A DNA stretch of 64,000 nt, taken from the IMG/VR virus record IMGVR_UViG_3300008262_000013. One strand, 5' to 3'. The translations under genes were made by a program, and so were the position numbers. The notes below the pieces were generated by a model. That model saw only the letters and a list, made by a program, of their open reading frames with translations. It had not been told where the DNA came from and made no database searches. This document shows positions 22,767-42,186 of this stretch, in pieces. Each line of letters begins with the position of its first letter. Position 1 is the first letter of the stretch. The stretch is from a virus (Duplodnaviria; Caudoviricetes).

Positions 22767-23831
22767 ATGGCTGATGGAATTTCAGGTGCAGGTGCAGAGA
22801 TTACAGCTCTCGCGGAGAGTTTACAAGCTTATGCATGTGCTACGAGACAATTCATTGGTAAACCACTAACCGATGTTACAGAAATAACTAATAAAACAAT
22901 TGGTGATGCTGAGTGTGATAGACCATTGGATAAATGTTTAAAAGGTTTAAATGCAAATTGGTATCACAGTGTCATAACTACAGCCAATGAAATTTTTAAA
23001 GATGTCAAACCTCAAGGTAAATATATGTTTTACCGTGGTGGAAAATTAGTCGGCGACATTTATAAAGAGTTCGGAAAATTTAGAAAAGAAAGTGGTTTAT
23101 CTGGAGATGATAAATGGAATCCTGCTGACATTTGGATGGCAAAAAAAGGATTTAAATTTGAAAAAGACTGGTCAACACTTAGAGACTATAATCGATATAT
23201 CTATGATGAATTTGCACATAAGAATCTAATTGGAATTTCTTTGAAGTTGGTACCAAAAGGTGATGCACATTCTAAAATATTTAATGATGGTAAACCTCTC
23301 ATCGCAGAATGGAATGGGTACAAAATTAGTGATGATATGTTTAGTTCAAAAGACATATATCTGAAATATAAATCAGAAGGTAAAGAAGGTGAAATACAAC
23401 TTAGAAATTTCTCAAGTCGTCCGGTTACAAGTTCTTGGCAAGGAGAAATTAAAGGTAAAACAGCAGCAGGTGGAAAAATTGGTGGTGGCATTGTAATGAC
23501 TGCTGCATTAGAATCTGGGATACCAAGAACTAAACTAATGATACCTTCGTCTTTCGGTACTCATATTGAAAAACCTAATGATAAGATTCTAAAAGAATTT
23601 GCTACAATGTTTAAAGAATTAAGTAAAAGTAAAAAATCAGTAAAAGATTTAATGACTGAAGCTATGATTTGTCAAAAGAAAGATAAGACTTGGTGGATGT
23701 CAAAATTTTTAGGCATACATTATGTTTATACCATTATAAACGAAAAAAAAGAAAATGAAGTTGTTAAATGGTTGTTTGAATATGGATCATCAGCAACTAA
23801 GAACAGTAGTATTTTTATAAAGTATAGCTAA
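22767..23831 (+). CDS. Putative PD-(D/E)xK restriction-endonuclease-fold protein
   Basis: DKWNPADIW....LIGISLK motif spacing; no recognisable family name. Confidence 0.5.
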   Translation: MADGISGAGAEITALAESLQAYACATRQFIGKPLTDVTEITNKTIGDAECDRPLDKCLKGLNANWYHSVITTANEIFKDVKPQGKYMFYRGGKLVGDIYKEFGKFRKESGLSGDDKWNPADIWMAKKGFKFEKDWSTLRDYNRYIYDEFAHKNLIGISLKLVPKGDAHSKIFNDGKPLIAEWNGYKISDDMFSSKDIYLKYKSEGKEGEIQLRNFSSRPVTSSWQGEIKGKTAAGGKIGGGIVMTAALESGIPRTKLMIPSSFGTHIEKPNDKILKEFATMFKELSKSKKSVKDLMTEAMICQKKDKTWWMSKFLGIHYVYTIINEKKENEVVKWLFEYGSSATKNSSIFIKYS

Positions 23832-25063
23832 TGAAATTCTCAGAATATTTAACCGAATCTAAGAAAGAAGGAGCTAACCTTCACTTAGAACATTTAGAAG
23901 ATAATGTATTAAACAGAGGCATAAAAGGTGCAAGAGAGTCAATTGATTTTCTCCGTGCATTGCGTGATATGTTAGCAGGTCATTCTCAATCCAAAGTGAA
24001 TGTTACTACAAAATGGGATGGTGCTCCTGCTGTAATTTGTGGTACTAATCCAGAAAATGGAAAGTTTTTCGTCGGCACAAAATCAGTTTTTAATAAAGAA
24101 GGTAAATTAAATTATACTGATGATGATATTGATAAGAATCATCCTGGTGGAGGACTAAATGAAAAATTAAAAACAGCACTTGCTTTTCTTTCAAAGTTAG
24201 AAATTAAAGGTATATTACAAGGTGACATGTTATTCACTAAAGGTGATATACAAAAACAAAGTATAGACGGCGAATCATATATTACATTTCAGCCTAATAC
24301 AATTGTTTATGCTGTGCCTACTGATTCTGTTATGGCTTCAAAAATGATGGCAGCTCAAATGGGTATCGTGTTTCATACATCGTATTCTGGTAGAACCATG
24401 GATACATTGAAGGCCTCTTTTAATATTGATATTGGTAATTTAAAACAAACTAAAGATGTTTGGTTTAGAGATGCTTCATTTGTTGATGCCTCTGGTACTG
24501 CAACATTTACTGAAACAGAAACTAAGTTAATTACGAATGTTCTATCTCAAGCAGGCAGAGTATTTCAAACAATCAATCCTCTAGTTCTAAATAGAATATC
24601 TTCTTCAGATATTTTAAATACACAAATTAAAACATTTAATAATACGAAAGTCAGAGCAGGTCAAAAAATAACTAACACTCGAACACATGTTACAGAATTG
24701 ATTCGTTGGGTAGAAGATAGGTTGAATAAAGAAATTCTTGCTGCAAAGAAAGAAGATACGAGGAAAAAAAGAATCGCAGAAAAATCTGAACTGATTAGAT
24801 TTTACAGAAGTAGTGCATCTCAACTTGCGGCAATTTTTGACTTAATGAACTTAATTGTAGACGCCAAGATAATGATAGTCAGAAAATTAGAATCTATAAA
24901 ATCTTCAGTAAGTACTTTTGTAAATACTGAAGATGGTTTCAAAGTTACTGGTCCAGAAGGTTTTGTTGCAGTAGATAGATTAAGTGGTGGTGCATTGAAA
25001 CTTATCGATAGAATGGAATTTTCGCAACAAAACTTTAATGCCGCAAAGAATTGGAGTAAATAA
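23831..25063 (+). CDS. DUF6267-like ligase/capping-family nucleotidyltransferase with capsid-targeting-like leader
   Basis: MKFSEYLTE leader; TTKWDGAP (KxDG motif I), QGDMLF, EGFVAV, ALKLIDR. Confidence 0.6.
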   Translation: MKFSEYLTESKKEGANLHLEHLEDNVLNRGIKGARESIDFLRALRDMLAGHSQSKVNVTTKWDGAPAVICGTNPENGKFFVGTKSVFNKEGKLNYTDDDIDKNHPGGGLNEKLKTALAFLSKLEIKGILQGDMLFTKGDIQKQSIDGESYITFQPNTIVYAVPTDSVMASKMMAAQMGIVFHTSYSGRTMDTLKASFNIDIGNLKQTKDVWFRDASFVDASGTATFTETETKLITNVLSQAGRVFQTINPLVLNRISSSDILNTQIKTFNNTKVRAGQKITNTRTHVTELIRWVEDRLNKEILAAKKEDTRKKRIAEKSELIRFYRSSASQLAAIFDLMNLIVDAKIMIVRKLESIKSSVSTFVNTEDGFKVTGPEGFVAVDRLSGGALKLIDRMEFSQQNFNAAKNWSK

Positions 25064-25335
25064 TGGCTTATGATTTAAATAAAATACTGCAAGAGTATGG
25101 TGATGATGACTTTGGTTTTTCTGCCGTATCTGAAGAAGAATATAATGCGGTCATAAATGAGAAGGCTGATACTGCCGAAGAATTTCAAGCAAGACTTCAA
25201 CAGGTAGAAAAATTAGTATTACCTTTTTTCACTAAGTTGTTACAGACCGCGGATAAAGAATACATATATTGGCCAAATAGAAAAAAATTGGTCGAAGATC
25301 AAATACAAAAGATTTTAAAACTAACAAGAGGATAA
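25063..25335 (+). CDS. Hypothetical protein
   Basis: Coupled ORF; DDFGFSAVSEEE, YIYWPNR. Confidence 0.65.
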   Translation: MAYDLNKILQEYGDDDFGFSAVSEEEYNAVINEKADTAEEFQARLQQVEKLVLPFFTKLLQTADKEYIYWPNRKKLVEDQIQKILKLTRG

Positions 25336-25346
25336 AGGAGACTAAC

Positions 25347-25469
25347 ATGTTAGAGACACTTTTCTGGTTACTAATTGGAGCATTTATTGGTTGGAATTTT
25401 CCGCAACCACAGTTTGCAAAAAATTTGCAGGCGAAAGTAATGGGAATGTTTAAAAAAACTGGTGAATAA
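25347..25469 (+). CDS. Small membrane protein (40 aa, not in ORF track)
   Basis: AAGGAG RBS; MLETLFWLLIGAFIGWNFPQPQFAK. Confidence 0.65.
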   Translation: MLETLFWLLIGAFIGWNFPQPQFAKNLQAKVMGMFKKTGE

Positions 25470-25471
25470 AA

Positions 25472-25861
25472 ATGGCTTATTCTAGTCAATTGATGGATCA
25501 CTATGAGAATCCACGAAACGTAGGAAAGTTAGATACAAGTGACACGACTGTTGGTACAGGATTAGTTGGTGCGCCAGCTTGCGGTGACGTTTTAAAGTTG
25601 CAAATTAAAGTTGATGACGGAGTAATTACTGATGCGAAATTTAAGACGTATGGTTGTGGCTCGGCGATTGCATCGTCGTCGCTTGTCACCGAGTGGGTTA
25701 AAGGCAAGACAATTGATGAAGCGATGGCGATCAAGAATACCCAAATTGCTGAGGAACTTGCATTACCACCAGTCAAAATTCATTGTTCGATTCTGGCGGA
25801 AGATGCAATCAAAGCAGCTATAAAAGATTATAAAGATAAAAATTTAGCAAAGGCAGCTTGA
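25472..25861 (+). CDS. iscU: Fe-S cluster scaffold IscU
   Basis: DHYENPRNVG, GAPACGD, GCGSAIAS, LPPVKIHCS. Confidence 0.97.
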   Translation: MAYSSQLMDHYENPRNVGKLDTSDTTVGTGLVGAPACGDVLKLQIKVDDGVITDAKFKTYGCGSAIASSSLVTEWVKGKTIDEAMAIKNTQIAEELALPPVKIHCSILAEDAIKAAIKDYKDKNLAKAA

Positions 25862-26736
25862 TGTTAAAACAAGTAGATGGTAAGTGGGCTTTAGTTTCTA
25901 AAAAAACACAGAGACCACTTGCTTATTACAGAGGTGAGGGTAAACCTTCTGACGAATGGGTTAGGAAACAAGAATCAAGAATTCAAATATTCAAGTCGAT
26001 GAATGAACAAAAAGATTCTACGAAGTCTGGTTCTGGTTTAACTATATTCGATATTGATGACACACTCTTTCATACAACTGCTAAGATTGCTGTGAAGAAA
26101 GATGGTAAAGTTGTTCGTGAATTAAATAATCAAGAATTTAATACCTATCAATTAAAGAAAGGTGAAGAATTTGATTATCGCCAATTTCGTGATGCAAAAA
26201 AGTTTAAAGAAGAATCAAAGCCTATTGCCAAAATGTTTGCTAAGGCAAAAGCAATACTCCGTAATGTTGTAAATAAACCGGGTAGTCAGATGATTATTTT
26301 GACTGCACGTAATGATTTTGATGACAAAGAAACATTTTTGGATACATTCAGGCAATATGGTTTAGATATAAACAAGGTAAGAGTCGAACGTGCAGGCAAA
26401 TTAACAAAGTTGTCGCCAGCGCACGCTAAGTATGTTATAATATATAATTATTTAAAACAAGGTAAATTTTCCCACGTTCGTTTATTCGATGATAGTATGG
26501 CAAACCTAAAAGAATTTTTACGTTTGAAAAAAGATTTTACAGACGTAACATTTGAGGCATATTTTGCGAAACCAGATGGTTCAGTGGAAAGAATCGGTGG
26601 TATAAATGAAGAACAAGAGTTTGTTTCTAAGGCTGGCGCAGGAGAATGGGGTAGACCAGAACTAACACGTAAATATATAGAAGATACACCAGGACAAAAG
26701 GTTCAGAGGTTTAAGAAATACATAAAGAATATATAA
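25861..26736 (+). CDS. Polyprotein containing a HAD phosphatase (PNKP/SAK-like)
   Basis: IFDIDDTL, ILTAR, LFDDS; small flanking modules separated by MNE and INEE. Confidence 0.7.
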   Translation: MLKQVDGKWALVSKKTQRPLAYYRGEGKPSDEWVRKQESRIQIFKSMNEQKDSTKSGSGLTIFDIDDTLFHTTAKIAVKKDGKVVRELNNQEFNTYQLKKGEEFDYRQFRDAKKFKEESKPIAKMFAKAKAILRNVVNKPGSQMIILTARNDFDDKETFLDTFRQYGLDINKVRVERAGKLTKLSPAHAKYVIIYNYLKQGKFSHVRLFDDSMANLKEFLRLKKDFTDVTFEAYFAKPDGSVERIGGINEEQEFVSKAGAGEWGRPELTRKYIEDTPGQKVQRFKKYIKNI

Positions 26737-26754: not shown

Positions 26755-27588
26755 ATGAGAGATTTGATTATAGGATGTTCCACCAACTACGATTGGTCCA
26801 AATTAAAATATTGGATCAACTCTATCAATAAATCCGGATTTCAGGGTGATAAGGTCATGATTCTTATGAATTGTGACAAAGATACAGTAAATAAAGTTGT
26901 TGAATCCGGATTCAATGTTATAGGTTTCAAAAAAGACGAAGAAGGTAATTTAACATATTCCTCTAATATGCCAGTGCATACTGAAAGATTTTTGCACATA
27001 TACAACTATCTAAAAGATAAGGACTATCGATACGTAATTACTACTGATGTTAAAGATGTAGTCTTTCAAAAAAATCCTATTGAATTTTTGGAAAAGGAAT
27101 GTGTCAATAAAAATTTACTTTTTGCTTCGGAAAGTATTCGATACAAAGATGAACCATGGGGTGATCAAAACTTAAAAGAAACTTTTGGTCCTTACATTTA
27201 TGAACAGTTTAAAAATAATGAGATATTCAATGTGGGTGTTTTGGCTGGACATGGATATGCTATTCGTGATTTAGCACTAAACATTTTTGTTTCTTGTTTG
27301 AATCGTCCAATTCCTATTTGTGACCAATCAACCTTCAACTTTATGATTAGTCAAAATCCCTACACTTCATTGAGTAAGTATACTCGTTCTGAAGAAGGCT
27401 GGGCAGCACAGTTAGGTACAACAGGAGATCCATCAAAAGCATTACAATTTGATCCTGTTTTATTGGAAGCCAAACCTAAACTACAAGATGGAATTGTAAC
27501 GACATCTGAAGGAAAACAATTTTATATTGTACACCAGTACGATAGAGTACCTGAAATGAAAAATACATTGGAGAAAAAATATGAGTGA
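26755..27588 (+). CDS. Glycosyltransferase-like protein
   Basis: ITTDVKDVVFQ (DxxD), FNVGVLAG, DQSTFN, VHQYDR. Confidence 0.6.
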   Translation: MRDLIIGCSTNYDWSKLKYWINSINKSGFQGDKVMILMNCDKDTVNKVVESGFNVIGFKKDEEGNLTYSSNMPVHTERFLHIYNYLKDKDYRYVITTDVKDVVFQKNPIEFLEKECVNKNLLFASESIRYKDEPWGDQNLKETFGPYIYEQFKNNEIFNVGVLAGHGYAIRDLALNIFVSCLNRPIPICDQSTFNFMISQNPYTSLSKYTRSEEGWAAQLGTTGDPSKALQFDPVLLEAKPKLQDGIVTTSEGKQFYIVHQYDRVPEMKNTLEKKYE

Positions 27589-28153
27589 TATGTTAGTAAT
27601 TAATACGAATTCTGAAGCATTTAATATAACAGAAAAAAGAGAATTTAGGCCTTCTGGGTACCACTTTAAACAATTTATTTCTGTAATGGAAAAACCTGTT
27701 GTTTTAGAAATTGGTTGTGATATCGGTGATACAGCATTTTCTTATCTAGAATGTAATCCTAATTTAACTTTATATTCTATTGACCCGTATGATGATTATG
27801 TTGATTGGAATGGAAATCATTTGAATGAGAGACAGAAACTTTATCAACATGTGGTGGATAGATTTAAACCATTTGGTGATAGATTTAAACTTATACGAAG
27901 TAATTCTGATGAAGCGGTTAGTCTTTTTGAAGATGAATTTTTTGATTTAATTTTTATAGATGGACTTCATACTTATGACCAACTAAGTAAAGACTGTGAT
28001 AATTATTATTCCAAACTAAAAACCGGATCAATATTTTCTGGACATGATTATACGGTAATTGAGGGAGTTAATAGGGCTGTTAATGAATTTTCTCAGAAAG
28101 TAAATAAAGAAGTTAATAGTGGTGAAAACGATACGTGGTTTTGGGTCAAATGA
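27581..28153 (+). CDS. Class I SAM methyltransferase (Methyltransf_24-like)
   Basis: VLEIGCDIG, SIDP, LIFIDGLHTY, GHDY. Confidence 0.85.
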   Translation: MSDMLVINTNSEAFNITEKREFRPSGYHFKQFISVMEKPVVLEIGCDIGDTAFSYLECNPNLTLYSIDPYDDYVDWNGNHLNERQKLYQHVVDRFKPFGDRFKLIRSNSDEAVSLFEDEFFDLIFIDGLHTYDQLSKDCDNYYSKLKTGSIFSGHDYTVIEGVNRAVNEFSQKVNKEVNSGENDTWFWVK

Positions 28154-28839
28154 AAAATTGCATAGTTTTTTCTGGACAATTCAGGACTTTTAAAGATACT
28201 GTTGAAAACATCAAAGAGTTTATTCGAATCAATGATTTAGATGTTTATTGTTTTTTATGGACTACAGACGCGGATGAAAAGCGATTTGTAGTCGATAATC
28301 TAAAACCTATAAACTTTAGATTTGATGATTACTCCAATTATCAAGGTATGTTTGAAGAAATGGAACAAAGAATTCGCCATAATAACCCTAAACCTGCTCC
28401 CATCGATAAGGTTGCTGCAAACGCATCGATGAATTTTGCTAGAAAACAGGCGTATTCTTTAGTGAGAAATAATTATGATAACATCTTCTATTGTAGATAT
28501 GACATTGACATATACGAACAGTTTACTTTAAAGGAACAAGTTGATTTTGTAGTAACACCATTAGAAGAATCGTATAATTTAATATCGGATATATTTGCAA
28601 TTATACCTCAAAAATATGCTAAACATTATTTTTTGTATGATGAATATGAAAATATACACTCAACTAAATTTGAACCTAAGTTTGAAGAATGGTTGAGAAG
28701 TATTAAAAAATACGGTGAAGAAAACATCAGGATTCATAGAGATGATAGATATTGTCCACATATGATGTTGTTACGCAATTTATGGAATAATAATGTACCC
28801 TTTGTTATAGAAAACCTTCCTGTGAGAATAAAAAGATGA
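28150..28839 (+). CDS. Glycan-biosynthesis protein (GT-like), paralogue of next gene
   Basis: CIVFSGQFRTF, DVYCFLW, YCRYD, ISDIFAI. Confidence 0.55.
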   Translation: MKNCIVFSGQFRTFKDTVENIKEFIRINDLDVYCFLWTTDADEKRFVVDNLKPINFRFDDYSNYQGMFEEMEQRIRHNNPKPAPIDKVAANASMNFARKQAYSLVRNNYDNIFYCRYDIDIYEQFTLKEQVDFVVTPLEESYNLISDIFAIIPQKYAKHYFLYDEYENIHSTKFEPKFEEWLRSIKKYGEENIRIHRDDRYCPHMMLLRNLWNNNVPFVIENLPVRIKR

Positions 28840-29561
28840 AAATAGCTTTATGTTTTTCTGGACAAGCCAGATCGTTTGAAAAAGGTTACGAATATTATAA
28901 AAAAAATCTCTTAGATAATTATGATGTAGATGTTTACATTCATAGCTGGAAATTTGATGGTGAAGAAAAGTTTTTGGATCTTTACAAACCAAAATCTTTT
29001 AAATTTAGTGATCCTTACTCAAATACTGAACAAGGATTTAAGTTGGATGATTACTATACGCATACACCAAATAGAGAAAAATATCCACCAAGATTTACAT
29101 ATTCGATGTTTGATTCTATGTATAGGTGTTTAGAATTATTGGTTCACGAATCATTAAACAATCGGACTGATTATAATTGGGTAATAAGAACTCGAACTGA
29201 TTATGCTTTGAATGTTTCGATTCCTTTTGAAACACTAGATTCAAACAAACTTTATATACCAAATTGTAGAATGGTACCAGAAAGAGATTTTGGAAATGAC
29301 CAGTTCGCATTTTCATCATATAATAATATGAAAAAATATATGTCAACTTTCATGAACATAAATCACTACTATGATGATTTGAAAACATTATTCATAGGTG
29401 AAGATTTGATGAAAGCCAATTTACATGAACATAATTTATTTGGTGAAAATTTGGTTTATGTTAATATGAATAATCCTTTTCCACCAGGATCCCACAACGG
29501 AACTTGGCACTCATTGATTCGAGATGATTACGAAGAATGGACAAACAATTCAAAAAAATAA
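28836..29561 (+). CDS. Glycan-biosynthesis protein (GT-like)
   Basis: IALCFSGQARSF, DVYIHSW, IRTRTD, NDQFAF. Confidence 0.55.
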   Translation: MKIALCFSGQARSFEKGYEYYKKNLLDNYDVDVYIHSWKFDGEEKFLDLYKPKSFKFSDPYSNTEQGFKLDDYYTHTPNREKYPPRFTYSMFDSMYRCLELLVHESLNNRTDYNWVIRTRTDYALNVSIPFETLDSNKLYIPNCRMVPERDFGNDQFAFSSYNNMKKYMSTFMNINHYYDDLKTLFIGEDLMKANLHEHNLFGENLVYVNMNNPFPPGSHNGTWHSLIRDDYEEWTNNSKK

Positions 29562-30295
29562 TCAAAGAATTAAAAGGACATTCTGGAAATAAAATAACTT
29601 TGGTTGAAAACGATAATATTTTATACGTTGAAAAAACTGGAGATATAGAAAGAAATTTTGAAAGAATGAAGTTTCTTTATGAAAACAACTATAATGTACC
29701 ATTAATTTTTGAAAGTGATGGAAAAACATTCATGAACATGGAGTATATCCATGGTCTTGATATGAAAGAATATTTAAAAACACATAATATAAAGTTTCTT
29801 TTTAATTTTATATTTGATATATTAAAACAGTTTTCTGAAAATAGTGAAGTTGTAGATTACACTGAAACATATTATAAAAAGTTATCTTTTCTTGATGATG
29901 TGAATGATTTACCTTTCTCTAAAGAAGAATTTATATATTCTTTACCTAAAAAAATACCCAGATCACATTATCATGGAGATTTTACTTTAGAAAATTTAAT
30001 TTATACAGAAAACAAATTCGTTATGATTGATCCAGTAACAATAGAATATGATTCTTATATATTTGATATAGCTAAACTTAGACAAGATTTAGAGTGTAAA
30101 TGGTTTCTTAGAGAGACAGACTTAAGATTAGATGTAAAATTAAATGAGTTACAAGAGAGAATACTGAATTCTTTTCCCTTGGCTAAAGATGATAATTTAT
30201 TAATATTGATGTTATTAAGAGTTTATAGGCACACTAAGAGTGGTGATAATAATCATCAGTTTATTTTGAAGGCGATTGAAAAATTATGGAAATAA
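29537..30295 (+). CDS. APH/choline-kinase-fold phosphotransferase
   Basis: LKGHSG, MEYI, HGDFTLEN, MIDP, DIAKLRQD. Confidence 0.8.
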   Translation: MDKQFKKIIKELKGHSGNKITLVENDNILYVEKTGDIERNFERMKFLYENNYNVPLIFESDGKTFMNMEYIHGLDMKEYLKTHNIKFLFNFIFDILKQFSENSEVVDYTETYYKKLSFLDDVNDLPFSKEEFIYSLPKKIPRSHYHGDFTLENLIYTENKFVMIDPVTIEYDSYIFDIAKLRQDLECKWFLRETDLRLDVKLNELQERILNSFPLAKDDNLLILMLLRVYRHTKSGDNNHQFILKAIEKLWK

Positions 30296-31329: not shown

Positions 31330-32030
31330 TTCCTAATAAAATTTTATTTATTGTTACTTCAGCTTTAAATTCAAAAGTTGGAGTTGTGAATAGTACTCAA
31401 AGATTACAACAGACAGTAGAAACACTAATTAATTTAAAACAAAAAGTGCCTGAAGCCACTATACTTCTTGTAGATGGTTCGCCTGATCCAGTTCCCGAAG
31501 AAACGAAAAAAATAATCAGTCAACATTGTCAATGTATTTGGTTTGGAGAACATCCAGAAATAAATTCAATGTCATCAATAGGTAGACAAAGTGAGGCTGA
31601 ACTTTTACTATTATTTAATACCTTTATTTTATTTAAACGTGTTCCTGAATTTATGAGTTTTTTGCATGGAGTCAAAAGAATTTTCAAATTTTCAGCGAGA
31701 AGTTTTTTAGAAGATGATTTCGACATTAATGAGTATGATAATCTTTTTGGTAAGTATGTGTTTAAGAAATCTTTGCCATCTTGGATGCCACCCGAAAGAA
31801 AAAAGAATATAACTGATCATCTCTACATTACAAGAATGTATTCCTTTTGTCCTTCTTTATTGGATAATTACTTACAACAAATTCAACCAATGTTAAACAA
31901 CGTGATGCAACATAGAATCGATTTCGAACATGCTCATTATCTTTGTCTAGATAAAACACATATAGTTGAATTTGATAGAATAAAATGTTCTGGCATCGTA
32001 TCGGTTTCGGGACAAATGGAAAGATATTAA
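31314..32030 (+). CDS. Hypothetical, GT-like protein
   Basis: FIVTSAL..ILLVDGS..IFKFSAR; in glycan operon. Confidence 0.55.
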   Translation: MDVSLIPNKILFIVTSALNSKVGVVNSTQRLQQTVETLINLKQKVPEATILLVDGSPDPVPEETKKIISQHCQCIWFGEHPEINSMSSIGRQSEAELLLLFNTFILFKRVPEFMSFLHGVKRIFKFSARSFLEDDFDINEYDNLFGKYVFKKSLPSWMPPERKKNITDHLYITRMYSFCPSLLDNYLQQIQPMLNNVMQHRIDFEHAHYLCLDKTHIVEFDRIKCSGIVSVSGQMERY

Positions 32031-32031
32031 T

Positions 32032-32828: not shown

Positions 32829-32836
32829 TATAAATA
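32829..32836 (+). promoter_or_regulatory. T4-type late promoter
   Basis: Exact TATAAATA in intergenic region. Confidence 0.8.
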
Positions 32837-32876: not shown

Positions 32877-35600
32877 ATGAAATTTAAAGACTTTCTATTA
32901 GAACAGAAAGAAAAACACGCTGTCATGGCTTTCGGCCGTATGAATCCGATTACGAACGGCCATGAAAAAGTAGTCAAGGAAGTCAAAAAAATTGCTAAGC
33001 AATTTGACGCATCCCACCACATCGTACTGTCACATTCTCAAGATCCGAAGAAAAATCCTCTTACAGTACAGCAAAAAATGAAACACGCTAAGCGTGCATT
33101 TCCCGATACAAAATTTGTAGCAGCATCCAGTGAATCTCCCACATTTTTCGAATATGCCGAAAAGTTATACAAACAAGGTGTAACTCATTTTCACATGGTT
33201 GCTGGTTCTGATCGAGCTCTCGAATATTTAAAATTACTCAAAAAATATAATGGTACACATAAGGGTGCTAGATTTAATTTTAAATACATGGGTGTAGAAT
33301 CTGCCGGTGAACGTGACCCAGATGCAGAAGGCGCAGAGGGTATCTCCGCATCAAAGATGCGTGATGCTGCCGCAAAGGGAGATTTCAAAACTTTTAAAAA
33401 AGGCGCACCATCAAAAATGTCAGTTGATCAGGTAAAAGACATGTATAATGATGTGCGTAAAGGTATGAACATTAAAGAAAGCATCAATGAAGAATTCGAA
33501 GAACTTCTCGTTGAAGGTGTACATGATCAAAGTATTTTCAAAGCAGTATTTTTAGCAGGCGGTCCAGGTTCAGGTAAAGATTATGTGTTAAGTAATACAT
33601 TAGATGGCCATGGATTAACAGAAATTAATTCTGATAAAGCTTTAGAGTTCTTAATGGATAAAAAAGGACTTGATAAGAGAATGCCTGAGAATGAAACTGA
33701 AGCGAGAGATATCGTTCGAGGCAAAGCTAAGAGTGTAACTGAATTACGTCAACGTTTAGCATTACAGGGAAGAAACGGTTTAATCATCAATGGTACAGGC
33801 GATGATCCTAAAAAGGTTGCAAAAATTAAATCAAAATTAGAAGAATTGGGTTACGACACCTCAATGATTCTTGTCAATACAAATGATGAAGTGTCTGCAC
33901 AAAGAAACATTGAACGTGGTCAAAGAGGTGGTAGAACTGTACCAGAAACAATTCGTAAAGAAAAATGGGACAATGTTCAAAACGCACGTACAGAATACGC
34001 AAAGATATTTTCTGATCGTTATATGGAGTTTGACAACTCGGAAGATTTGCGACAAGCGCCACCTGATGTGGTTAAAGAAAAGAAAATGGAAATGTTGCAA
34101 CTCTTTAAGAATGTTAAAGAGTTCGTTGCACAACCTCCACAATCTCCTGCTGCTCAAGAATGGGTAGCAAATGAACTTCAACAAAAAGATACATTAAAGC
34201 CGGACACAAAAGGTGCAGAAAAGATTCCACCAAGTGGATCTAGTGCTGCTGATGAAGCTAGAAAGATGGGATTACAATATTATGGATTTGGCCGTTACGG
34301 TAAAAATGGTAAAACTACACACCGTTCAGTGCATGACAAATTAGTACAAGTAACAAACAAAGAACCAGAACAACCAAAATTACCAACACCAGGTTCTTCA
34401 CCAGTTGATAATAAATCTAAAGTCAAAAAAGAATCTATTGATGACGAATTTGAAAATCTTATTTCAGAAGATTTGCGTAAGTGGTTTAGTAAAACTGATC
34501 CAGAAGGTGGTTGGAAAAGAATTAATAGTAAAGGTGAAGCAATTGGTCCTTGCGCTCGTGAACCTGGTGAACCAAAACCAAAATGTATGTCAAACGAAAA
34601 ACGTGCTTCATTGTCCAAGAAAGAACGTGCATCTGCTGTCGCAGCAAAACGTAAACATGATCCTGTTGCAGACAGAGGTGGCAAAGGTGGTAAACCTGTG
34701 AATGTTTCTAATTTTGGAAAAGGAAAACTATCTGAAGCTGTAACAGTTTCGGTTACTGGTGATACAGTTGATGAAGTAAAAGACTTCTTTACTACATTCA
34801 ATAATAATGTAACCCATGAAGAATCATATGCTTTGTCTGATTCAAAGACTGATGCTATAACATTAGGTAAATTTATGCAACCCTTTGGTGAGAAAATGGA
34901 AAATACCATGATCACTAATGAGATGATGCAAGATATGCTTGATGAAAGTCAACATAATTTATTGAAAGATAAACAAGGTAGAGTTAGAGTTTTCATGTTG
35001 CGCTCTGTTGCAGCAAAAGAAGCACATACGAAACAAGGTATCGTTTTGAAACATAAAAATGGTTATGTAATTAAACTAAAAGAGGAGATTGAAAATGTTG
35101 AAGTTTATAAAGGAACTATTCGGAATTGGATTGAAGAATCCAAACAAGCACGGGTTAGAGGGAGCATCGACAGCTCCAAACCAGGACTTCTCACAGAGAG
35201 TAGAACAATACTCAGCACCAGTGGAAGCACCAGTTCAGGAACAAACAGTTCAAGAGAAACCAAAGACGCAAAAGAAGGCACCAGCATCCAAGAAGCCATC
35301 GCCAAAGAAACAAGAAACAAAATCACCCTCTCAGAAATCAGGCAGAGGCAGAAAACCTGGTCAGAAGAACAAATCAACGAAATAGATCGTGGTATTGAAC
35401 CTGGTCTATCAATGGCTGGTGCAGGTGAAAGTATTGGTAGAGATATGGGAGAAAAAATTAAAAAAAGATCCCATAAAGTTACTACAGTAGAAATGACTGG
35501 TGATGAAACAACAGCTTCTATTGGTGATCAAAAAGAAGGTGAGTTAAAAAGAAAAGGTATTAATTTAACGACATTCAAAGCAAAAAGGCCGATAGGATGA
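32877..35600 (+). CDS. Polyprotein: capsid-targeting-like leader, HIGH nucleotidyltransferase, zeta-toxin/PNK-like P-loop kinase, several small modules
   Basis: MKFKDFLLE; FGRMNPITNGH..AGSDR..SASKMR; FLAGGPGSGKD..INSD..RNIERG..RTVP; linkers LLVE, LISE, LSE, LDE, INE. Confidence 0.75.
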   Translation: MKFKDFLLEQKEKHAVMAFGRMNPITNGHEKVVKEVKKIAKQFDASHHIVLSHSQDPKKNPLTVQQKMKHAKRAFPDTKFVAASSESPTFFEYAEKLYKQGVTHFHMVAGSDRALEYLKLLKKYNGTHKGARFNFKYMGVESAGERDPDAEGAEGISASKMRDAAAKGDFKTFKKGAPSKMSVDQVKDMYNDVRKGMNIKESINEEFEELLVEGVHDQSIFKAVFLAGGPGSGKDYVLSNTLDGHGLTEINSDKALEFLMDKKGLDKRMPENETEARDIVRGKAKSVTELRQRLALQGRNGLIINGTGDDPKKVAKIKSKLEELGYDTSMILVNTNDEVSAQRNIERGQRGGRTVPETIRKEKWDNVQNARTEYAKIFSDRYMEFDNSEDLRQAPPDVVKEKKMEMLQLFKNVKEFVAQPPQSPAAQEWVANELQQKDTLKPDTKGAEKIPPSGSSAADEARKMGLQYYGFGRYGKNGKTTHRSVHDKLVQVTNKEPEQPKLPTPGSSPVDNKSKVKKESIDDEFENLISEDLRKWFSKTDPEGGWKRINSKGEAIGPCAREPGEPKPKCMSNEKRASLSKKERASAVAAKRKHDPVADRGGKGGKPVNVSNFGKGKLSEAVTVSVTGDTVDEVKDFFTTFNNNVTHEESYALSDSKTDAITLGKFMQPFGEKMENTMITNEMMQDMLDESQHNLLKDKQGRVRVFMLRSVAAKEAHTKQGIVLKHKNGYVIKLKEEIENVEVYKGTIRNWIEESKQARVRGSIDSSKPGLLTESRTILSTSGSTSSGTNSSRETKDAKEGTSIQEAIAKETRNKITLSEIRQRQKTWSEEQINEIDRGIEPGLSMAGAGESIGRDMGEKIKKRSHKVTTVEMTGDETTASIGDQKEGELKRKGINLTTFKAKRPIG
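35095..35385 (+). CDS. Nested out-of-frame small Lys/Pro-rich protein inside the 907-aa gene
   Basis: GAGGAG 7 nt before ATG 35095; MLKFIKELFG then P/K/Q-rich tail; both frames open. Confidence 0.55.
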   Translation: MLKFIKELFGIGLKNPNKHGLEGASTAPNQDFSQRVEQYSAPVEAPVQEQTVQEKPKTQKKAPASKKPSPKKQETKSPSQKSGRGRKPGQKNKSTK

Positions 35601-36181
35601 AAACATTTAAAGAATTAATGTTAGAGAGATGTTGGCCAGGTCATAAACCTGTACCTGGTAAAAAACCTTATTCACCAGGTTCTTGTGTAAAAGAAGAACA
35701 ACTTGATGAAATGCCTGGTGCTAATATGGACACTAGAGCAGTACATAAGCATCTTAGAAAATCTGGTTGGGAATTAACTAGAACATCCGGTGGTCACGAT
35801 GTGTTTACTCATCCAGAAGCTAAGCATCATATTCCTGTTCCTCGTCACAAGCAATTAAAGGCACCATTAGTTCGTGGTATTCTAAAAGCTGCCAAAATAA
35901 ATGAAGATTTGGAAGAATCTGCCGCATGGCAACGTAAAGAAGGAAAAAATCCTGAAGGTGGATTAAATCGTAAAGGTATTGCTTCTTATCGCCGTGAAAA
36001 TCCTGGTTCAAAATTGTCAATGGCTGTGACTACACCACCATCAAAATTAAAACCAGGAAGTAAAGCAGCGAATCGCCGTAAATCATTTTGCGCTCGTATG
36101 GGTGGTATGCCAGGTCCTATGAAGGATGAAAAAGGTCGTCCAACAAGAAAAGCATTATCTTTGAGAAAGTGGAATTGCTAA
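35597..36181 (+). CDS. Polyprotein: leader, Cys-pair mini-module, HicA-like mRNA interferase, DUF6321-like basic module
   Basis: MKTFKELMLE; HLRKSGWELTRTSGGHDVFTHP..IPVPRH..LVRGILKAA; AAWQRKEGKNPEGGLN..FCARM..RKWNC. Confidence 0.78.
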   Translation: MKTFKELMLERCWPGHKPVPGKKPYSPGSCVKEEQLDEMPGANMDTRAVHKHLRKSGWELTRTSGGHDVFTHPEAKHHIPVPRHKQLKAPLVRGILKAAKINEDLEESAAWQRKEGKNPEGGLNRKGIASYRRENPGSKLSMAVTTPPSKLKPGSKAANRRKSFCARMGGMPGPMKDEKGRPTRKALSLRKWNC

Positions 36182-37492
36182 GTGGCACAATTTAGAACCG
36201 ACTTACACAAGATAGATTCAGGACAAGTATTCACTCGTTATGAAGTGAATATGATGTCTGATCGTCTTACACCATCGGGCACAATGACAGATGCGTTTGG
36301 TCGCCTTCGTCTATCACAACCATTTACTCTTTTTGATAGTTCGCACCGTTTTACTGACAACGGACTGTGGTCAACATCAAATACAGAAGGAAATAGTTCA
36401 TATGCTTTTGTAAACAATCAAAGTATGATTGCGATGACTGTGGGAACTACAGCAAATGCCGAAGTCATTCGTGAGACAACAAGAGTGTTTTCATATCAAC
36501 CAGGTAAGTCTTTGTTGATGATGTCGTCATTTGCTATGGAGACACCTAAAGCAAATGTTCGTCAGAGAGTTGGTTATTATGGTGCTGAGAATGGTATCTA
36601 TCTTGAGAATGATGGAACAGCAAACTATTTTGTGCTGAGAAGTAATACATCAGGGACAATTACAGAAACAAAAGTTACACAAACAGATTGGAATATAGAC
36701 AAGTTTGTCGGCACGGGTTATTCATCTCAAAGTGGTGGTGCTGAACATACTAACGGCATCGATGTAAGTAAAACTAATATTCTTTGGATGGATATTGAAT
36801 GGTTGGGTGTTGGTGATGTTCGTTGTGGATTTGTGGTTGATGGTAAAATGGTTCCTGCTCATATATTTCATAATGATAATAAGAATTTGGTTCCTTATAT
36901 GACAACGGCATCTTTACCGTTGCGTTATGAAATCAAGAACACAGGTATTACAACAAGTAATTCTACATTAAAACAGATTTGTTCAACCGTTATATCTGAA
37001 GGTGGATATGAGTTGCTTGGATCGCAGCAAGCCGTAGGCACACCAGTTACTAGCCCAATTGATTTGGCCGTTGCTGGAACATATTATAATCTCATTTCTT
37101 TGAGATTGAAATCGGATAGATTAGATGCGATTGCCATTATTACTGCACTATCTTTATTAGCATTAACTAACAACTCATATTATAACTGGCAACTCAGGGC
37201 GGGTGGTACAACAACAGGTGGAACATGGGTAAGTGCAGGAGATAATTCGGCTGTTGAATATAAATTAGATGCCGCAACAATTTCAGGTGGAAGAATATTA
37301 GCATCGGGCTTTACAACTTCTACTACACAAAGTTCTATACCAGTGGATATTCTTAGAGAAGCACTATTCAAATTTCAATTAGAAAGAAATGGATTGACCA
37401 ATACACCCTTCGAACTCACATTATGTGTGGCAGCATCAGTTAATGGTTCTGATATATACGCATCGATGGATTGGGAAGAAGTCACAAGATAA
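36182..37492 (+). CDS. Probable virion structural protein (beta-rich)
   Basis: DAFGRLRLSQPFTLFDS, FSYQPGKS, IEWLGVG; Thr/Gly-rich; late region. Confidence 0.55.
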   Translation: MAQFRTDLHKIDSGQVFTRYEVNMMSDRLTPSGTMTDAFGRLRLSQPFTLFDSSHRFTDNGLWSTSNTEGNSSYAFVNNQSMIAMTVGTTANAEVIRETTRVFSYQPGKSLLMMSSFAMETPKANVRQRVGYYGAENGIYLENDGTANYFVLRSNTSGTITETKVTQTDWNIDKFVGTGYSSQSGGAEHTNGIDVSKTNILWMDIEWLGVGDVRCGFVVDGKMVPAHIFHNDNKNLVPYMTTASLPLRYEIKNTGITTSNSTLKQICSTVISEGGYELLGSQQAVGTPVTSPIDLAVAGTYYNLISLRLKSDRLDAIAIITALSLLALTNNSYYNWQLRAGGTTTGGTWVSAGDNSAVEYKLDAATISGGRILASGFTTSTTQSSIPVDILREALFKFQLERNGLTNTPFELTLCVAASVNGSDIYASMDWEEVTR

Positions 37493-37517: not shown

Positions 37518-38840
37518 ATGTTTCAAGACAAACTAACAAAAGAAATTGCTGCTGCAGCAGCACAAATTAAAACAGAACCAACTAAAAACGTTGTAAATGG
37601 AAACAGCGTTGAAGGTGCTGTTGTTTCAATTATGGCCAATGAAGAACTTAAAGGTAATCAACACAAGATTGATGCCAATAAGAATGGTAAAGTTGATGCA
37701 CACGACTTTAAACTTCTTCGTAGTAAGAAAAAAGTAGAAGAAGGTGTTAAGGGTGCTGGTGTAGGTGCTGCTCTAGGTTCTGTTGCTGGTGGACCAGTCG
37801 GTGCTGCAATTGGTGGTGCTTTAGGACATGTGGCTGGTGAAGTTCTTTCCAGTGCTAAAAACAAAGCAAAAGCTATGGGTCGTATTGCTGTAGGTCCTTC
37901 AATGGCTGATAGCAAATTAAAAAGAGAAGATGTTGAACAAATCGATGAAGTTGGTGATACATCAGCAGGTAGAAAAATGATTAGTTCATATGTCAACAAA
38001 GCAATTGGTGACAAATCAAAAGACCGTTCAAAAGGTTTACGTAAAGCAACATCACGCCTCTACAAAGACAATTACTATGGTAAAAAGAATGAAGAAGTTG
38101 AAATGAACGAAGAAGATGCTTATAACAAAGACCGTTATGCTGTTAAAGATGGTAAAGCAAAAAAAGATAATCCTACACACATGGGTTCACCTAACTACAA
38201 AGATCAACCACATCATGTTTGGGCAACAAGTGCTGAACATGCATTGAAAAAATCTATGAAGAAAGAAGAAGTTGAACAAATGGACGAAGCTTTTCCAACT
38301 GTAGCAGATGCTAAAAAACGTATGGCTGCCGGTCAAAGTTCTTTCGAGAAAAAGAAAATTTCTACTGGCACAGTTTACTCACGTAAGTACAAAGCAGAAC
38401 CAGATGATGCAGATGATATGCCAAAGAAAAAGGCAAAGACTATGAAAGAGATGTTGGACATTTACAGACAACATGGCGCAGAATCTTTGGTAGAAAATTT
38501 AATGATCGAAGAACCAACGAACGATGAGTATAAAAAAGAAGCTGAAATTGCTCAAGCAAAATCTGAAGGTAAAATTCGCAATGACAAACAGATTGCTAAA
38601 GCAGCATCACAAGGTGTAAAAATGGAAGAAGTTGAACTTGAAATGTATGATGCTGATGAAATCAATGGTGTTCAAATCGATACAATTGATGAGCGTTCAA
38701 TGACTGATGCTGAAATGGACAAACGTGAGAAAATCGTAAAGTCAATGAAAAAAGGCATTCAAGGTTTCAAAGATCGTTATGGTGATGATGCTAAGTCGGT
38801 AATGTATGCTACTGCAACCAAAAACGCGATGAAGGACTAA
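37518..38840 (+). CDS. Internal-protein-like polyprotein with EF-hand-like and glycine-zipper modules
   Basis: IDANKNGKVDAHDF; GAGVGAALGSVAGGPVGAAIGGALG; repeated EEVEx(x)DE linkers. Confidence 0.65.
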   Translation: MFQDKLTKEIAAAAAQIKTEPTKNVVNGNSVEGAVVSIMANEELKGNQHKIDANKNGKVDAHDFKLLRSKKKVEEGVKGAGVGAALGSVAGGPVGAAIGGALGHVAGEVLSSAKNKAKAMGRIAVGPSMADSKLKREDVEQIDEVGDTSAGRKMISSYVNKAIGDKSKDRSKGLRKATSRLYKDNYYGKKNEEVEMNEEDAYNKDRYAVKDGKAKKDNPTHMGSPNYKDQPHHVWATSAEHALKKSMKKEEVEQMDEAFPTVADAKKRMAAGQSSFEKKKISTGTVYSRKYKAEPDDADDMPKKKAKTMKEMLDIYRQHGAESLVENLMIEEPTNDEYKKEAEIAQAKSEGKIRNDKQIAKAASQGVKMEEVELEMYDADEINGVQIDTIDERSMTDAEMDKREKIVKSMKKGIQGFKDRYGDDAKSVMYATATKNAMKD

Positions 38841-38842
38841 CT

Positions 38843-40300
38843 ATGAAAAAGTTTTCGGATGTTTTTAAATCCATTCGATTTGCTAAATTGGACCCTCAAC
38901 ATGATAAACCTGAAATTGGTGGATCAAAAGATGATGAGGAACATTATACTGTTGGCACAAAAGAATGGGATCAACAAGTAAAACATGTAAAGAAAAGAGC
39001 TATGCAAGAAGAAAAGAAAGACAAGTATGATGAGGGTGAATATGACCGTGAAGGTGATATGGCTAAATCCGACTTGCGTTCTATCATTGCGAATGCTAAA
39101 AGATTGCACGATATGATTGAAGATGCTGATAATCTTCCTGAGTGGGTGCAATCTAAAATTACTGTAGCAGAAGATTATATTTCAACCGTTGCGAATTACA
39201 TGACAGCAGAAATGAATGAATCTGTCGCAGATACACATTCTAAATTGCGTAAAAAATCTGGTTTGCCACATCCCGATTACTATAAAGAATTAGGCAAATC
39301 TTATGATATTGAAGATGATAAAGAAAGACTTTCAAAGCAATCTGAAATCAAAAAGAAATACAAAGTCGAATCTTATGTTCCTTCACCACATGCCAAACCT
39401 GTTCCTAAGAAACCAAAAGGTGAATATGAACGTAAGGTTGACAAGTATTTGAAAAAGAAATACAACAAAGAAGAAGTGGAAATAGACGAAGCAGCAAAGT
39501 GGCGTTCAACTTCAGTAGCAAAAAAAGTTACTGATCCTGATGATGAAAGCAGTCGTTCTTATGACTATCATCACGAAAATCCCAGATCAACAGGCATGAA
39601 GCAAGCAACTTCAGATAAGCCATATTCATCGGGCAGTTTGATGACAAGACTTAAAGCACAAGTCGCCTCACAGGGTGCCAGAAAAGGTATGGTTACCAAA
39701 CAACACGCCGCAAGTCTAAAAGATAGAATCAAGTCTGCTATGCGTAAAGAAGAAGTTGAACTTTCTGAAGGTCGCCCATCACAGCGCCATCCATTAGAGG
39801 GTCATGAATATCACAAGAAAACGGATGCTGAATTGATTCACATTGCTAAAGATGCACATGAAGCAGCAGAAGCAATGAAAAGTCACAACACAACCGCAGA
39901 AAACAAATACCGTGACCAAGCAAATGATTCTGCGACAGTGAGATATTTCCGTCAAAAGAGTGGTATGCCTAACTGGTATAAAAAGAAGTACGGACACGTT
40001 AAGGAAGAAATGGAACAGTTAGAAGAAAAGAATGTTCCAACTTCACCTGAAAAGTGGGCTCAGGCCAAAGCACAAGCAAAAGCTAAGTTTGATGTATATC
40101 CATCAGCCTACGCAAATGGTTGGGCTGCAAAGAAATATAAAGAAATGGGTGGTGGTTGGAAATCAGTTAGCGAAGAAACTATTTCAGAATCTCGCAAATC
40201 TGAAATTATCAAAAAGTTAGTTAAGAAAAAAACTAATCCAGACGATAAATTTGAACCAAATCCAGTAATGGTAAAAACCAGAGATGACAGAGATCATTAA
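38843..40300 (+). CDS. Internal-protein-like polyprotein with basic modules (DUF5872-like C-terminal module)
   Basis: Linkers KEEVEIDE, KEEVELSE, KEEMEQLEE, TISE; VYPSAYANGWAAKKYKEMGGGWK. Confidence 0.65.
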   Translation: MKKFSDVFKSIRFAKLDPQHDKPEIGGSKDDEEHYTVGTKEWDQQVKHVKKRAMQEEKKDKYDEGEYDREGDMAKSDLRSIIANAKRLHDMIEDADNLPEWVQSKITVAEDYISTVANYMTAEMNESVADTHSKLRKKSGLPHPDYYKELGKSYDIEDDKERLSKQSEIKKKYKVESYVPSPHAKPVPKKPKGEYERKVDKYLKKKYNKEEVEIDEAAKWRSTSVAKKVTDPDDESSRSYDYHHENPRSTGMKQATSDKPYSSGSLMTRLKAQVASQGARKGMVTKQHAASLKDRIKSAMRKEEVELSEGRPSQRHPLEGHEYHKKTDAELIHIAKDAHEAAEAMKSHNTTAENKYRDQANDSATVRYFRQKSGMPNWYKKKYGHVKEEMEQLEEKNVPTSPEKWAQAKAQAKAKFDVYPSAYANGWAAKKYKEMGGGWKSVSEETISESRKSEIIKKLVKKKTNPDDKFEPNPVMVKTRDDRDH

Positions 40301-40308
40301 CATAAATA
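40301..40308 (+). promoter_or_regulatory. Late promoter variant
   Basis: CATAAATA 30 nt upstream of 40339 ATG. Confidence 0.6.
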
Positions 40309-41139: not shown

Positions 41140-41141
41140 TA

Positions 41142-41561
41142 ATGAGATATGAAGATGATGCTATCGATTCCTCAGAAGTAATAGGAACGATACAAAAAGG
41201 TCAAGCGATTGATGCACATGAACCTTCGGGTGAGGACTCTGTTTCGGTCCTCAACCCGAATGTTGTTACCGAAGTTAATTTTCGTTTAAGAAATGAATTA
41301 AATGAAATTATATTAACTGCCGATCAGGGTATACAGAAGATAAGAAAAACCTTACATAGATATGGTTTTGATTTACCTGCTGTATATGAACCTGATCGTG
41401 AAGGTGATGAACTGGTAATTGAAGTTAATCAGTTTGGTTTTGATGATTTAGATTCTAATGTTTATATTTTATATTTTATGAATGATAAAGGGGTTTATGA
41501 ATTTTATGCTGAACTTGGAGATGATCAACGTATGGATGAATTACTATCTGACGGTATTTAA
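41142..41561 (+). CDS. Acidic hypothetical protein
   Basis: Coupled ORF. Confidence 0.6.
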   Translation: MRYEDDAIDSSEVIGTIQKGQAIDAHEPSGEDSVSVLNPNVVTEVNFRLRNELNEIILTADQGIQKIRKTLHRYGFDLPAVYEPDREGDELVIEVNQFGFDDLDSNVYILYFMNDKGVYEFYAELGDDQRMDELLSDGI

Positions 41562-41572
41562 AAAGAAAAATA

Positions 41573-41965
41573 ATGCTGTTTGATAATTTGACTAGTGAAA
41601 ATATACTGATGTATGCAATGAAGATTTATGATAAGCCTAATTGCATCATGAGTGAGTTTAAAGAAGATATGAAAAGATTCAACTATTTAAAAAGGTTGTT
41701 TCGAAGGTATCGAAAAATAGGTGAAATAAAAGAACTTCTAGTATTAAATCATCTAGTCGTTTTATATAATGTTTTTGGTGCTGAAGCATTGACTAGATTA
41801 TTATTTTTTAAGATGTCCAAAGAAGATCAACCTATTTTAAAAACATACCTTATATTTTTAAGTTGTATGCCAGATGTGGTAAAAGGTATAAAAGGACAAG
41901 ATGTATTATCTTCTGATATACCTGTAGATTTAAAAATAGCCGAAGTGTTAAGAGAGATTAAATGA
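41573..41965 (+). CDS. T4-like hypothetical protein
   Basis: LTSENILMYAMKIYDKP..EFKEDMKRFNYLKRL..LVLNHLVVLYNVFG. Confidence 0.7.
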   Translation: MLFDNLTSENILMYAMKIYDKPNCIMSEFKEDMKRFNYLKRLFRRYRKIGEIKELLVLNHLVVLYNVFGAEALTRLLFFKMSKEDQPILKTYLIFLSCMPDVVKGIKGQDVLSSDIPVDLKIAEVLREIK

Positions 41966-42186
41966 GTAATGAATTTAAAAAAGAATGTGGCGAAGGAATG
42001 TATTGGTGTAGCACTGATAAAAAGTGTAAGCCAATACAAGAAGATATGCCCACAAACAATGCCGGTGGTGGTGTCATTGCTGGAATAGGTGTTGGTCCTC
42101 AAGGTGAACCTGGTGTAAATAAGAAAAAAAGAAATTTAATACCTTTAATGGCTTTTATAAGAAGGAAAGCAAATGTGGCTTCTTAG
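41962..42186 (+). CDS. Small hypothetical (Cys mini-module, IQE linker, Gly-rich module)
   Basis: CGEGMYWCSTDKKCKPIQE|DMPTNNAGGG. Confidence 0.6.
   Translation: MSNEFKKECGEGMYWCSTDKKCKPIQEDMPTNNAGGGVIAGIGVGPQGEPGVNKKKRNLIPLMAFIRRKANVAS

Follow-up and report, generated by a model that had tools for sequence, protein, structure and literature searches.

The locus

The 64-kb window analysed here, the whole 64,000-nucleotide stretch of IMG/VR record IMGVR_UViG_3300008262_000013, belongs to an uncultured T4-like myophage with genes for a T4-type DNA polymerase, clamp loader, UvsX, gp41 helicase, gp61 primase and NrdAB. Located among these replication genes, and not in the head module of the phage, is a group of genes whose products start with a leader like the capsid-targeting sequence (CTS) of phage T4, or are strings of modules with hydrophobic-x-Glu (hxE) sites at the module edges (Table 1). 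They are probably late-expressed, capsid-targeted cargo polyproteins that would be cut by the head protease, a reading to which we assign a probability of about 0.7. The isolates with the most similar proteins are Pelagibacter phage HTVC008M, the Methylophilales Melnitz phages and the Kyanoviridae cyanomyoviruses. No near-identical DNA was found in the phage collection; the same phage was recovered in many metagenome assemblies, once as a 145-kb contig.

Genes are named below by their start positions, and all positions are those of the window. A slash marks a junction. A first-pass annotation of the sequence had counted six proteins as polyproteins. The strings at 32877, 35597, 37518 and 38843 bear this out, while membership is thin for the 25858 and 41962 proteins, each with a single site.

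Table 1. Genes and putative expression signals of the proposed cargo region. Residue numbers are in brackets.
Feature	Position	Strand	Remarks
GATAAATA, late-promoter-like motif	22734..22741	+	33 nt 5' of 22767, the gene abutting leader-bearing 23831
DUF6267 protein, 410 aa	23831..25063	+	Pfam DUF6267 E 1.5e-112 from residue 16; leader at 23831-23857
HAD-phosphatase-like protein, weak member	25858..26736	+	One candidate junction, GGINE/E, before a short appended C-terminal motif
TATAAATA, exact T4 late-promoter consensus	32829..32836	+	48 nt 5' of 32877
907-aa cargo polyprotein	32877..35600	+	Leader (1-9), HxGH nucleotidyltransferase (10-201), acidic linker (202-213), P-loop kinase and small beta module (214-531), basic DLRKWF module (532-620), acidic segment (621-690), small basic domain (691-736), variable Ser/Thr-rich stretch, conserved C-terminal tail (836-907); from Pfam/PHROG matches, hxE conservation and the AlphaFold2 (AF2) model
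194-aa string	35597..36181	+	Leader, Cys-containing mini-module (11-38), HicA RNase-toxin domain (39-107), DUF6321 (108-194); hxE bounds each
phrog_1645 homologue, not a polyprotein	36182..37492	+	Relatives in cyanomyoviruses and HMO-2011 annotated 'virion structural protein'
440-aa Lys/Glu-rich string	37518..38840	+	About 7 modules, EEVExhxE-type linkers; no T4-type leader
485-aa string	38843..40300	+	About 7 modules (EKKDKY, GRPSQR, KNVPTS, others); N-terminus MKKFSDVF leader-like
CATAAATA, late-promoter-like variant	40301..40308	+	5' of 40339
Gly/Thr-rich protein, not a polyprotein	gene start 40339	+	3' of CATAAATA
Acidic 139-aa protein	41142..41561	+	Homologues in relatives start with a leader (MRFKQFVEE, MKFKEFLTE); N-terminus of the window copy degenerate
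74-aa protein	41962..42186	+	Cys-rich head, KPIQE/D, Gly-rich/basic tail module

N-terminal leaders

The three leaders named in the first-pass annotation, MKFSEYLTE at 23831, MKFKDFLLE at 32877 and MKTFKELMLE at 35597, are found exactly at these genes. Past the leader the three proteins are non-homologous: the first continues into DUF6267, the second into an HxGH nucleotidyltransferase, a P-loop kinase and more modules, and the third into HicA and DUF6321. The T4 CTS is MKTYQEFIAE, in which targeting depends on residues 4 and 7, and processing on residues 8 and 10 (PMC9026906). All three window leaders are aromatic or hydrophobic at position 4, hydrophobic at 7 and 8, and end in Glu. Furthermore, the first six residues of the 35597 protein, MKTFKE, are those of T4 IPI.

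A strict pattern (regular expression) built from these leaders matched three of the 644 ATG starts in the window, all of them genuine gene starts, where 0.009 matches would be expected by chance after shuffling residues 2-12 of every N-terminus. As a positive control, the pattern was run over 70 kb of phage T4 and returned IPII and IPIII only. In related loci it matched 87 of 11,568 ATG starts, including those of another nucleotidyltransferase family placed before the same linker and kinase, and of homologues of the 41142 protein. Of the polyprotein homologues found through their HxGH motif in 80 related IMG/VR loci, 69/69 keep the leader, as do 76 of the 78 IMG/VR homologues of the DUF6267 protein. 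Among homologues, the residue preceding the Glu (P2) is freely variable. The three window copies differ in nucleotide sequence and codons, and selection therefore acts on the peptide.

Module edges

Modules are intensely shuffled, and module content is highly variable even among close relatives. The linker sequences quoted in the first-pass annotation are all present. It had counted more than 20 acidic linkers; the six proteins do hold about 25-30 junction-type sites, but not all are acidic (GKGKLSE/A, IKLKE/E). The decisive evidence is the placement of hxE and not its bulk count, as the counts are barely enriched and the module edges are near-invariant. BLAST end points are noisy because the linkers resemble one another, and a module-edge test was therefore used in their place. 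For eight window modules with an N-terminal edge after hxE, we compared the sequences preceding the same module in relatives.

Over the eight modules, 134 of 140 distinct upstream contexts ended in hxE, where the background per position is 2.4%; for a control module whose edge was chosen arbitrarily, the figure was 1/36. The four DUF6321 exceptions to the rule are one-residue shifts. Three module edges of the 38843 string followed hxE in 15/15, 30/30 and 5/5 distinct contexts. What precedes a module can be entirely different, as for the DLRKWF module, whose non-homologous upstream contexts comprise acidic EEFE-type linkers, Pro-rich stretches, the ends of other modules and N-terminal leaders. 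In the junction logo of 124 contexts, P3 is L/I/F/M/V in 123, P8-P5 are Glu-rich, and P1 is Glu by the way the contexts were selected. Comparison with relatives thus strongly supports the claim that the hxE ends of the linkers coincide with the module edges.

Leader and linker are one kind of boundary, because the same modules follow either and leader-like copies occur internally. In other genes, window modules stand straight after N-terminal leaders (MKNFKTFITE/GRPSQR, MKTFNSFVSE/DLRKWF, MKSFKEYLIE/TAAW). Leader-like copies lie inside strings, for example ...SFKSFINE/RCWPG.

DUF6321, found in 3217 protein clusters at 50% identity, gave an independent and far more diverse sample of the module edge, which agrees. 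Among the 150 best proteins (P0001-P0150) of the cluster representatives, 122 had hxE at most one residue from the domain start, where about 7 would be expected. A broad version of the leader was found in 38% of these proteins, compared with 5% of the long open reading frames of a related complete genome; about half of the frames in that 5% are themselves head or cargo proteins. Although these proteins come from different 50%-identity clusters and range from 123 to 1214 aa, their DUF6321 domains are 78-99% identical, an extreme conservation of the module against shuffled backgrounds.

In the 907-aa protein, hxE conservation across 46 homologues is 100% for E9, E213 and E620, 97-98% for E201 and E531, and 89% for E736, while the surrounding columns are only 20-50% conserved. 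The AF2 model (mean pLDDT, predicted local distance difference test, 59.9) places folded domains at about 11-201, 217-440, 456-491 and 700-735, and all six Glu residues in low-pLDDT linkers.

Cutting at the supported sites would yield about 31 predicted fragments, mostly of 5-10 kDa. The modules had been called mostly basic, which agrees with a net positive charge in 20 of the 31. By sequence, the predicted fragments are of the size and charge class of the T4 internal proteins. The 'dozens of peptides' of the first-pass annotation is an upper bound, as it presumes cutting at every junction.

Possible link to the head protease

As the head module lies outside the window, the gp21 of this phage is not visible, and relatives were examined in its place. 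A gp21-type Peptidase_S77 is encoded in 5/5 long relatives with a polyprotein homologue, as well as in HTVC008M and S-CRM01. The closest complete relative, with a 214-kb genome and a polyprotein 79% identical, has a major capsid protein with ...QQLTE/A at the place of ...FLTE/A in T4 gp23, and small head-core genes beside its protease start with MKLINLILE and MKSLNEF.... T4 gp21 cuts after the Glu of (L/I)-x-E. The hxE motif of the window equals both this rule and the capsid propeptide site of the relative. A natural control is offered by S-CBP4, HTVC035P and 023Pt_psg01, which lack Peptidase_S77: there, DUF6321 stands alone as a protein of 83-93 residues that lacks both leader and hxE. Within the strings, no peptidase domain was found at Pfam/PHROG thresholds.

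A 'peptidase' encoded at 2009-4279 was considered as an alternative protease and set aside; its neighbour at 4372-5559 is an ATPase annotated as porphyrin biosynthesis, and there is no link to the strings. The two look like a CobT/CobS-type pair.

Expression signals

Late promoters had been placed at 32829 and 40301. The former is the exact TATAAATA consensus before the polyprotein gene, while the latter is the variant CATAAATA before a non-polyprotein gene. In the 64 kb, TATAAATA occurs in 2 copies, compared with 7.3 expected. The motif NATAAATA has six copies on the + strand, three of which lie 33-48 nt 5' of the gene starts 22767, 32877 and 40339. The genes between 32877 and 40300 run in the same direction with almost no gaps, and one of them encodes a homologue of a virion structural protein. 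As judged from these signals, the leader and string genes are putatively transcribed late.

Identity of the proposed cargo

The first two domains of the 907-aa protein had NadR as their top fold match (6gyf, E 4.8e-8), spanning both domains at 12-14% identity and with low TM-scores. Nicotinate mononucleotide adenylyltransferases matched the first domain; nucleoside monophosphate (NMP) kinases, zeta toxin and polynucleotide kinase matched the second. NadR itself is a fusion of nicotinamide mononucleotide adenylyltransferase and ribosylnicotinamide kinase. By fold the two phage domains resemble it, but the low identity and TM-scores, and the other kinase matches, set them apart from it. We take the model-based match as a lead to NAD salvage. 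In the 35597 protein, HicA was recognized by Pfam HicA_toxin PF07927 (E 4.1e-12, 46.4 bits vs a cut-off of 27) and DUF6321 with E 3e-23. Most string modules had no recognisable enzymatic family in Pfam/PHROG.

The DUF6267 protein has an invariant K-W-D-G, a KxDG-type motif, and RNA/DNA ligases and capping enzymes recur among its weak fold matches (E 0.13-0.7; Z 5.7; model pLDDT 65.7). Foldseek gave no match at E <= 0.001, and a wide VIA search was dominated by helical bundles. Nothing was found in a PDB sequence search, and no mention of DUF6267 in a literature search. On the predicted fold, the protein may be a ligase-like nucleotidyltransferase.

Cultured carriers and virion proteomes

Cultured phages carry the same signals. 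In S-CRM01, genes of one run start with MNFSEFLE..., MISFDQFLSE (g130, annotated Ser/Thr kinase), MKKLDQFLTE and MKLFNQFFKE (g127, cytidyltransferase); g130 is the only gene with a Ser/Thr kinase annotation in the S-CRM01 locus examined. According to the S-CREM2 paper, the cytidylyltransferase of S-CREM2 was detected in virions and is 52.7% identical to its S-CRM01 homologue, g127 being among the listed homologues. The same paper reports that kinases and cytidyltransferases are frequent in cyanophage virion proteomes, and mentions a Ser/Thr kinase among the proteins of S-CRM01 virions.

S-B43 encodes a 428-aa string, composed of a DLRKWF-like module, one more module and DUF6321, whose annotation is 'structural protein'. 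Next to it lie a gene starting with MKSFQDFLQE, the phrog_1645 virion protein gene and the gene for the large terminase. HTVC008M has the kinase as a gene of its own, starting with MIPFILKE/G..., which matches the internal junction ELLVE/G... of the window.

Proposed mechanism and its alternatives

We read the leaders as CTSs and the hxE sites as head-protease sites because the leaders agree with the T4 CTS at its functional residues, module edges invariably carry hxE in non-homologous contexts, such edges are interchangeable with the leader, both signals co-occur with Peptidase_S77, and homologues are reported from cyanophage virion proteomes. The signals, their placement, conservation and interchangeability, and the co-occurrence with the protease are observed. 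The proposed sequence of events would be as follows. The leader and string genes would be transcribed late, and the N-terminal leader of 9-10 residues would send each protein to the scaffolding core of the prohead. There, the activated prohead protease (gp21, Peptidase_S77) would trim the leader after its Glu and cut the hxE sites bounding the modules. The separate products would be an HxGH nucleotidyltransferase, a P-loop kinase, a HicA RNase domain, DUF6321, the ligase-like DUF6267 protein and about 20 small, mostly basic modules. They would then remain with the DNA and enter the next host alongside it.

Several observations weigh against this reading. Bulk hxE is barely enriched in the four main proteins over composition-matched shuffles (z = 2.1, 2.0, 1.0 and 1.6), and when BLAST end points were compared with hxE sites in an unweighted permutation test, no significance was reached (p 0.10-0.44). 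The crude claim on the linkers is therefore weak, and with z values of 1-2 bulk counting was dropped as main evidence. The junction counts are not fully independent, since homologous junctions are partly inherited by descent. In 12 of the 150 DUF6321 representatives there is no hxE nearby. Within the kinase fold of the 907-aa protein, hxE is fully conserved at E249, E289 and E357, where, judging from the model, cutting is unlikely. Leaders are not universal either: the 37518 protein has none, the 38843 protein lacks Glu at position 10, and some homologues are without any leader (the S-RIM4 DUF6267 protein and two IMG/VR sequences). The HTVC008M cytidyltransferase (gp130, L107:6648-8438) starts with MKTLKELLRK, with Lys replacing Glu at position 10; in the T4 CTS, a Glu to Asp change at this position stops processing and leaves targeting intact. 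The evidence for the protease comes from relatives, and the authors of the S-CREM2 study caution that virion detections may be co-purifying abundant proteins. Finally, targeting, cutting, retention and injection of these particular proteins would follow by analogy with T4 IPI-III and Alt, as would any host-takeover or anti-defence activity of the cargo. Thus, from the earlier interpretation of the locus, T4-type CTS leaders with head-protease sites between shuffled modules stand as far as the sequence reaches, and the remainder is drawn from that analogy.

Packaging and processing could take place as proposed, with products that are mainly structural, namely scaffold-core or DNA-condensing internal proteins that aid head assembly or DNA packing and are not effectors. 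This we consider unlikely, though credible. Most predicted fragments are small and basic like the T4 internal proteins, most modules are without a recognisable enzymatic family, the S-B43 string lies within a structural gene block beside the large terminase gene, and the T4 core proteins gp22, gp67 and gp68 have many hxE sites. Many modules, being small basic domains, could equally be DNA-associated internal proteins. However, the HxGH nucleotidyltransferase and kinase with their NadR fold match, the HicA domain and the ligase-like protein have no obvious structural use. The high variability of module content in close relatives is typical of arms-race genes, and DUF6321 is free-standing in phages without this head system.

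It is improbable that the proteins are ordinary cytoplasmic multidomain enzymes, neither packaged nor cut, in which the shared N-terminus would serve translation or folding and the acidic stretches would be flexible spacers. The weak bulk enrichment, the location among replication genes and the co-purification warning would fit such enzymes. A spacer, though, has no reason to keep a hydrophobic P3 and a Glu at P1 in 134/140 non-homologous contexts amid variable surroundings. Nor would it account for the interchange of leader and linker at the same module edge, for the match of the leader to the T4 CTS at its functional residues, or for the loss of both signals in phages without Peptidase_S77. 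That the junctions are real but serve another phage or host protease, or are DNA-level shuffling cassettes, is very improbable: shuffling is intense, and shuffling-mediating mobile regulatory cassettes are known from T4-type genomes, but two constrained residues are too little for a DNA recombination signal, the leader codons differ, the motif equals the gp21 rule and the relative's propeptide site, and no other protease domain was seen in the strings with Pfam/PHROG.

Comparison with known systems

The closest known system to the proposed capsid-targeted polyproteins is that of T4 IPI, IPII, IPIII and Alt, with its CTS, gp21 processing and injection. Shared with the T4 internal proteins are a leader of about 10 residues of the same type (T4 MKTYQEFIAE and MKTFKEF..., here MKTFKELMLE and MKFKDFLLE) with hxE at its end, membership of a T4-like lineage that has Peptidase_S77, a late-promoter motif, and variable, mostly small and basic cargo. 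In contrast to those single small proteins with one cut, up to about 9 modules occur here per polypeptide, with a site at every junction. As judged from sequence, folded enzymes are part of the cargo too, modules change places between genes, and leaders and internal linkers can replace each other. That the CTS may enable T4-like phages to load a variety of proteins has been suggested before in the T4 literature (PMC9026906).

The nearest idea from comparative genomics is that of polyvalent proteins (Iyer, Burroughs, Anand, de Souza, Aravind 2017, PMC5512222), which likewise combine numerous unrelated domains within a single phage polypeptide, are proposed to be delivered along with the DNA and to release their domains by proteolysis, and show arms-race variability. 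Their range of 2-15 unrelated domains includes the 32877 protein (nucleotidyltransferase, kinase and at least four further modules) and the 35597 protein (HicA and DUF6321). Polyvalent proteins usually carry signature domains and their own peptidase (e.g. MPTase), whereas such domains were not found in our strings with Pfam/PHROG, and the strings would rely on the head protease in trans. The text of PMC5512222 does not contain 'cyanophage' or 'HicA', and no mention of T4-type leaders or head-protease linkers was seen in it.

The inner-body and ejection proteins of phiKZ, 201phi2-1 and SPN3US are also similar, in that many head-internal proteins are cut after Glu, at multiple sites each, and have targeting propeptides. 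Unlike here, their P3 is Ser/Ala/Gly and not hydrophobic, they belong to another lineage with an S80 protease (gp21-related), and their substrates are not beads-on-a-string sets of shuffled modules.

A literature search found no paper describing the present pattern, and capsid targeting and cyanophage occurred together only in one T4 review. New are the near-identical leaders in distant aquatic T4-like phages, the enzyme cargo, and the polyprotein grammar with a protease motif bounding shuffled modules.

Further features of the putative cargo genes and their neighbours

In nearly all homologues of the 907-aa protein, the tail at residues 836-907 (35382-35597) is strongly conserved, while the preceding 100 residues are hypervariable. 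Its consensus is IDKGIEPG...SMA..GE; TGDETTASIGDQKE.ELKKKGI. T4 Alt is processed at its C-terminus. A different C-terminal tail module, at 42043-42183 in the 41962 gene, recurs at the C-termini of L059:11520-12125, L029:7507-8043 and L088:12731-13129 in related loci, always after hxE/D. It consists of a Gly-rich ...IAGIGVG.QGEPGV, then a Lys run and then a hydrophobic/basic end, and could be a second, C-terminal signal. The C-terminal motif of the 25858 protein is also found in two HTVC008M proteins.

One module of the 37518 string, at residues about 76-110 (37743-37850), is a glycine-zipper segment with weak Pfam Gly-zipper matches (E 2e-5), and may be membrane-active. A 1077-aa string in a relative (L017:5453-8686) has an intein-like insertion within a KNVPTN-type module. 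The insertion starts with Cys, and reads ...FDVYP then C-VPLDS... where SAYANGW is usual.

The 36182 gene lies in the same co-oriented run as the strings, and this neighbourhood is conserved in S-RIM8 and S-B43. Its phrog_1645 family is common to cyanomyoviruses and the podovirus HMO-2011 at 57-60% identity. The occurrence in both morphotypes implies that a virion component was transferred horizontally.

A low-GC block of about eight genes (26755-32808; 28-29% vs about 35%), with methyltransferase, APH-like kinase, HAD-like, 2OG-Fe(II) oxygenase and DUF7796 genes, separates the DUF6267/HAD genes from the polyprotein gene. It resembles an island for sugar or cell-surface modification. A NifU/IscU-type Fe-S scaffold gene at 25472-25861 stands among the cargo genes (PF01592 on an identical metagenome contig) and is a possible auxiliary metabolic gene. 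Two phrog_19197 paralogues occur in the window, at 547-1830 and 21558-22724, the second just 5' of the late-promoter-like motif and gene 22767.

Implications

Beyond the capsid-targeted polyproteins of this one phage, we tentatively propose, at somewhat less than an even chance, a combinatorial cargo system in thousands of aquatic T4-like phages. In it, the head protease would double as a polyprotein-maturation enzyme, and any module placed behind a CTS or hxE would be loaded, released in the capsid and injected. Ready enzymes, such as the NadR-like NAD-salvage pair, a HicA RNase latent until cut and a ligase-like repair enzyme, would act before phage gene expression, for example against NAD-depleting or RNA-cutting defences. 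The equivalence of leader and linker would be the grammar of shuffling.

The leader and the hxE junctions form a simple sequence grammar by which virion-delivered proteins could be predicted from genomes alone, and they point to candidate injected counter-defence enzymes. They also suggest natural multi-cargo designs for T4-type protein-delivery vectors. If true, the reading would explain why cytidyltransferases and kinases recur in cyanophage virion proteomes, and the CTS rule of T4, known from a handful of small coliphage proteins, would come to cover a very large and shuffling cargo set in abundant ocean and lake phages.

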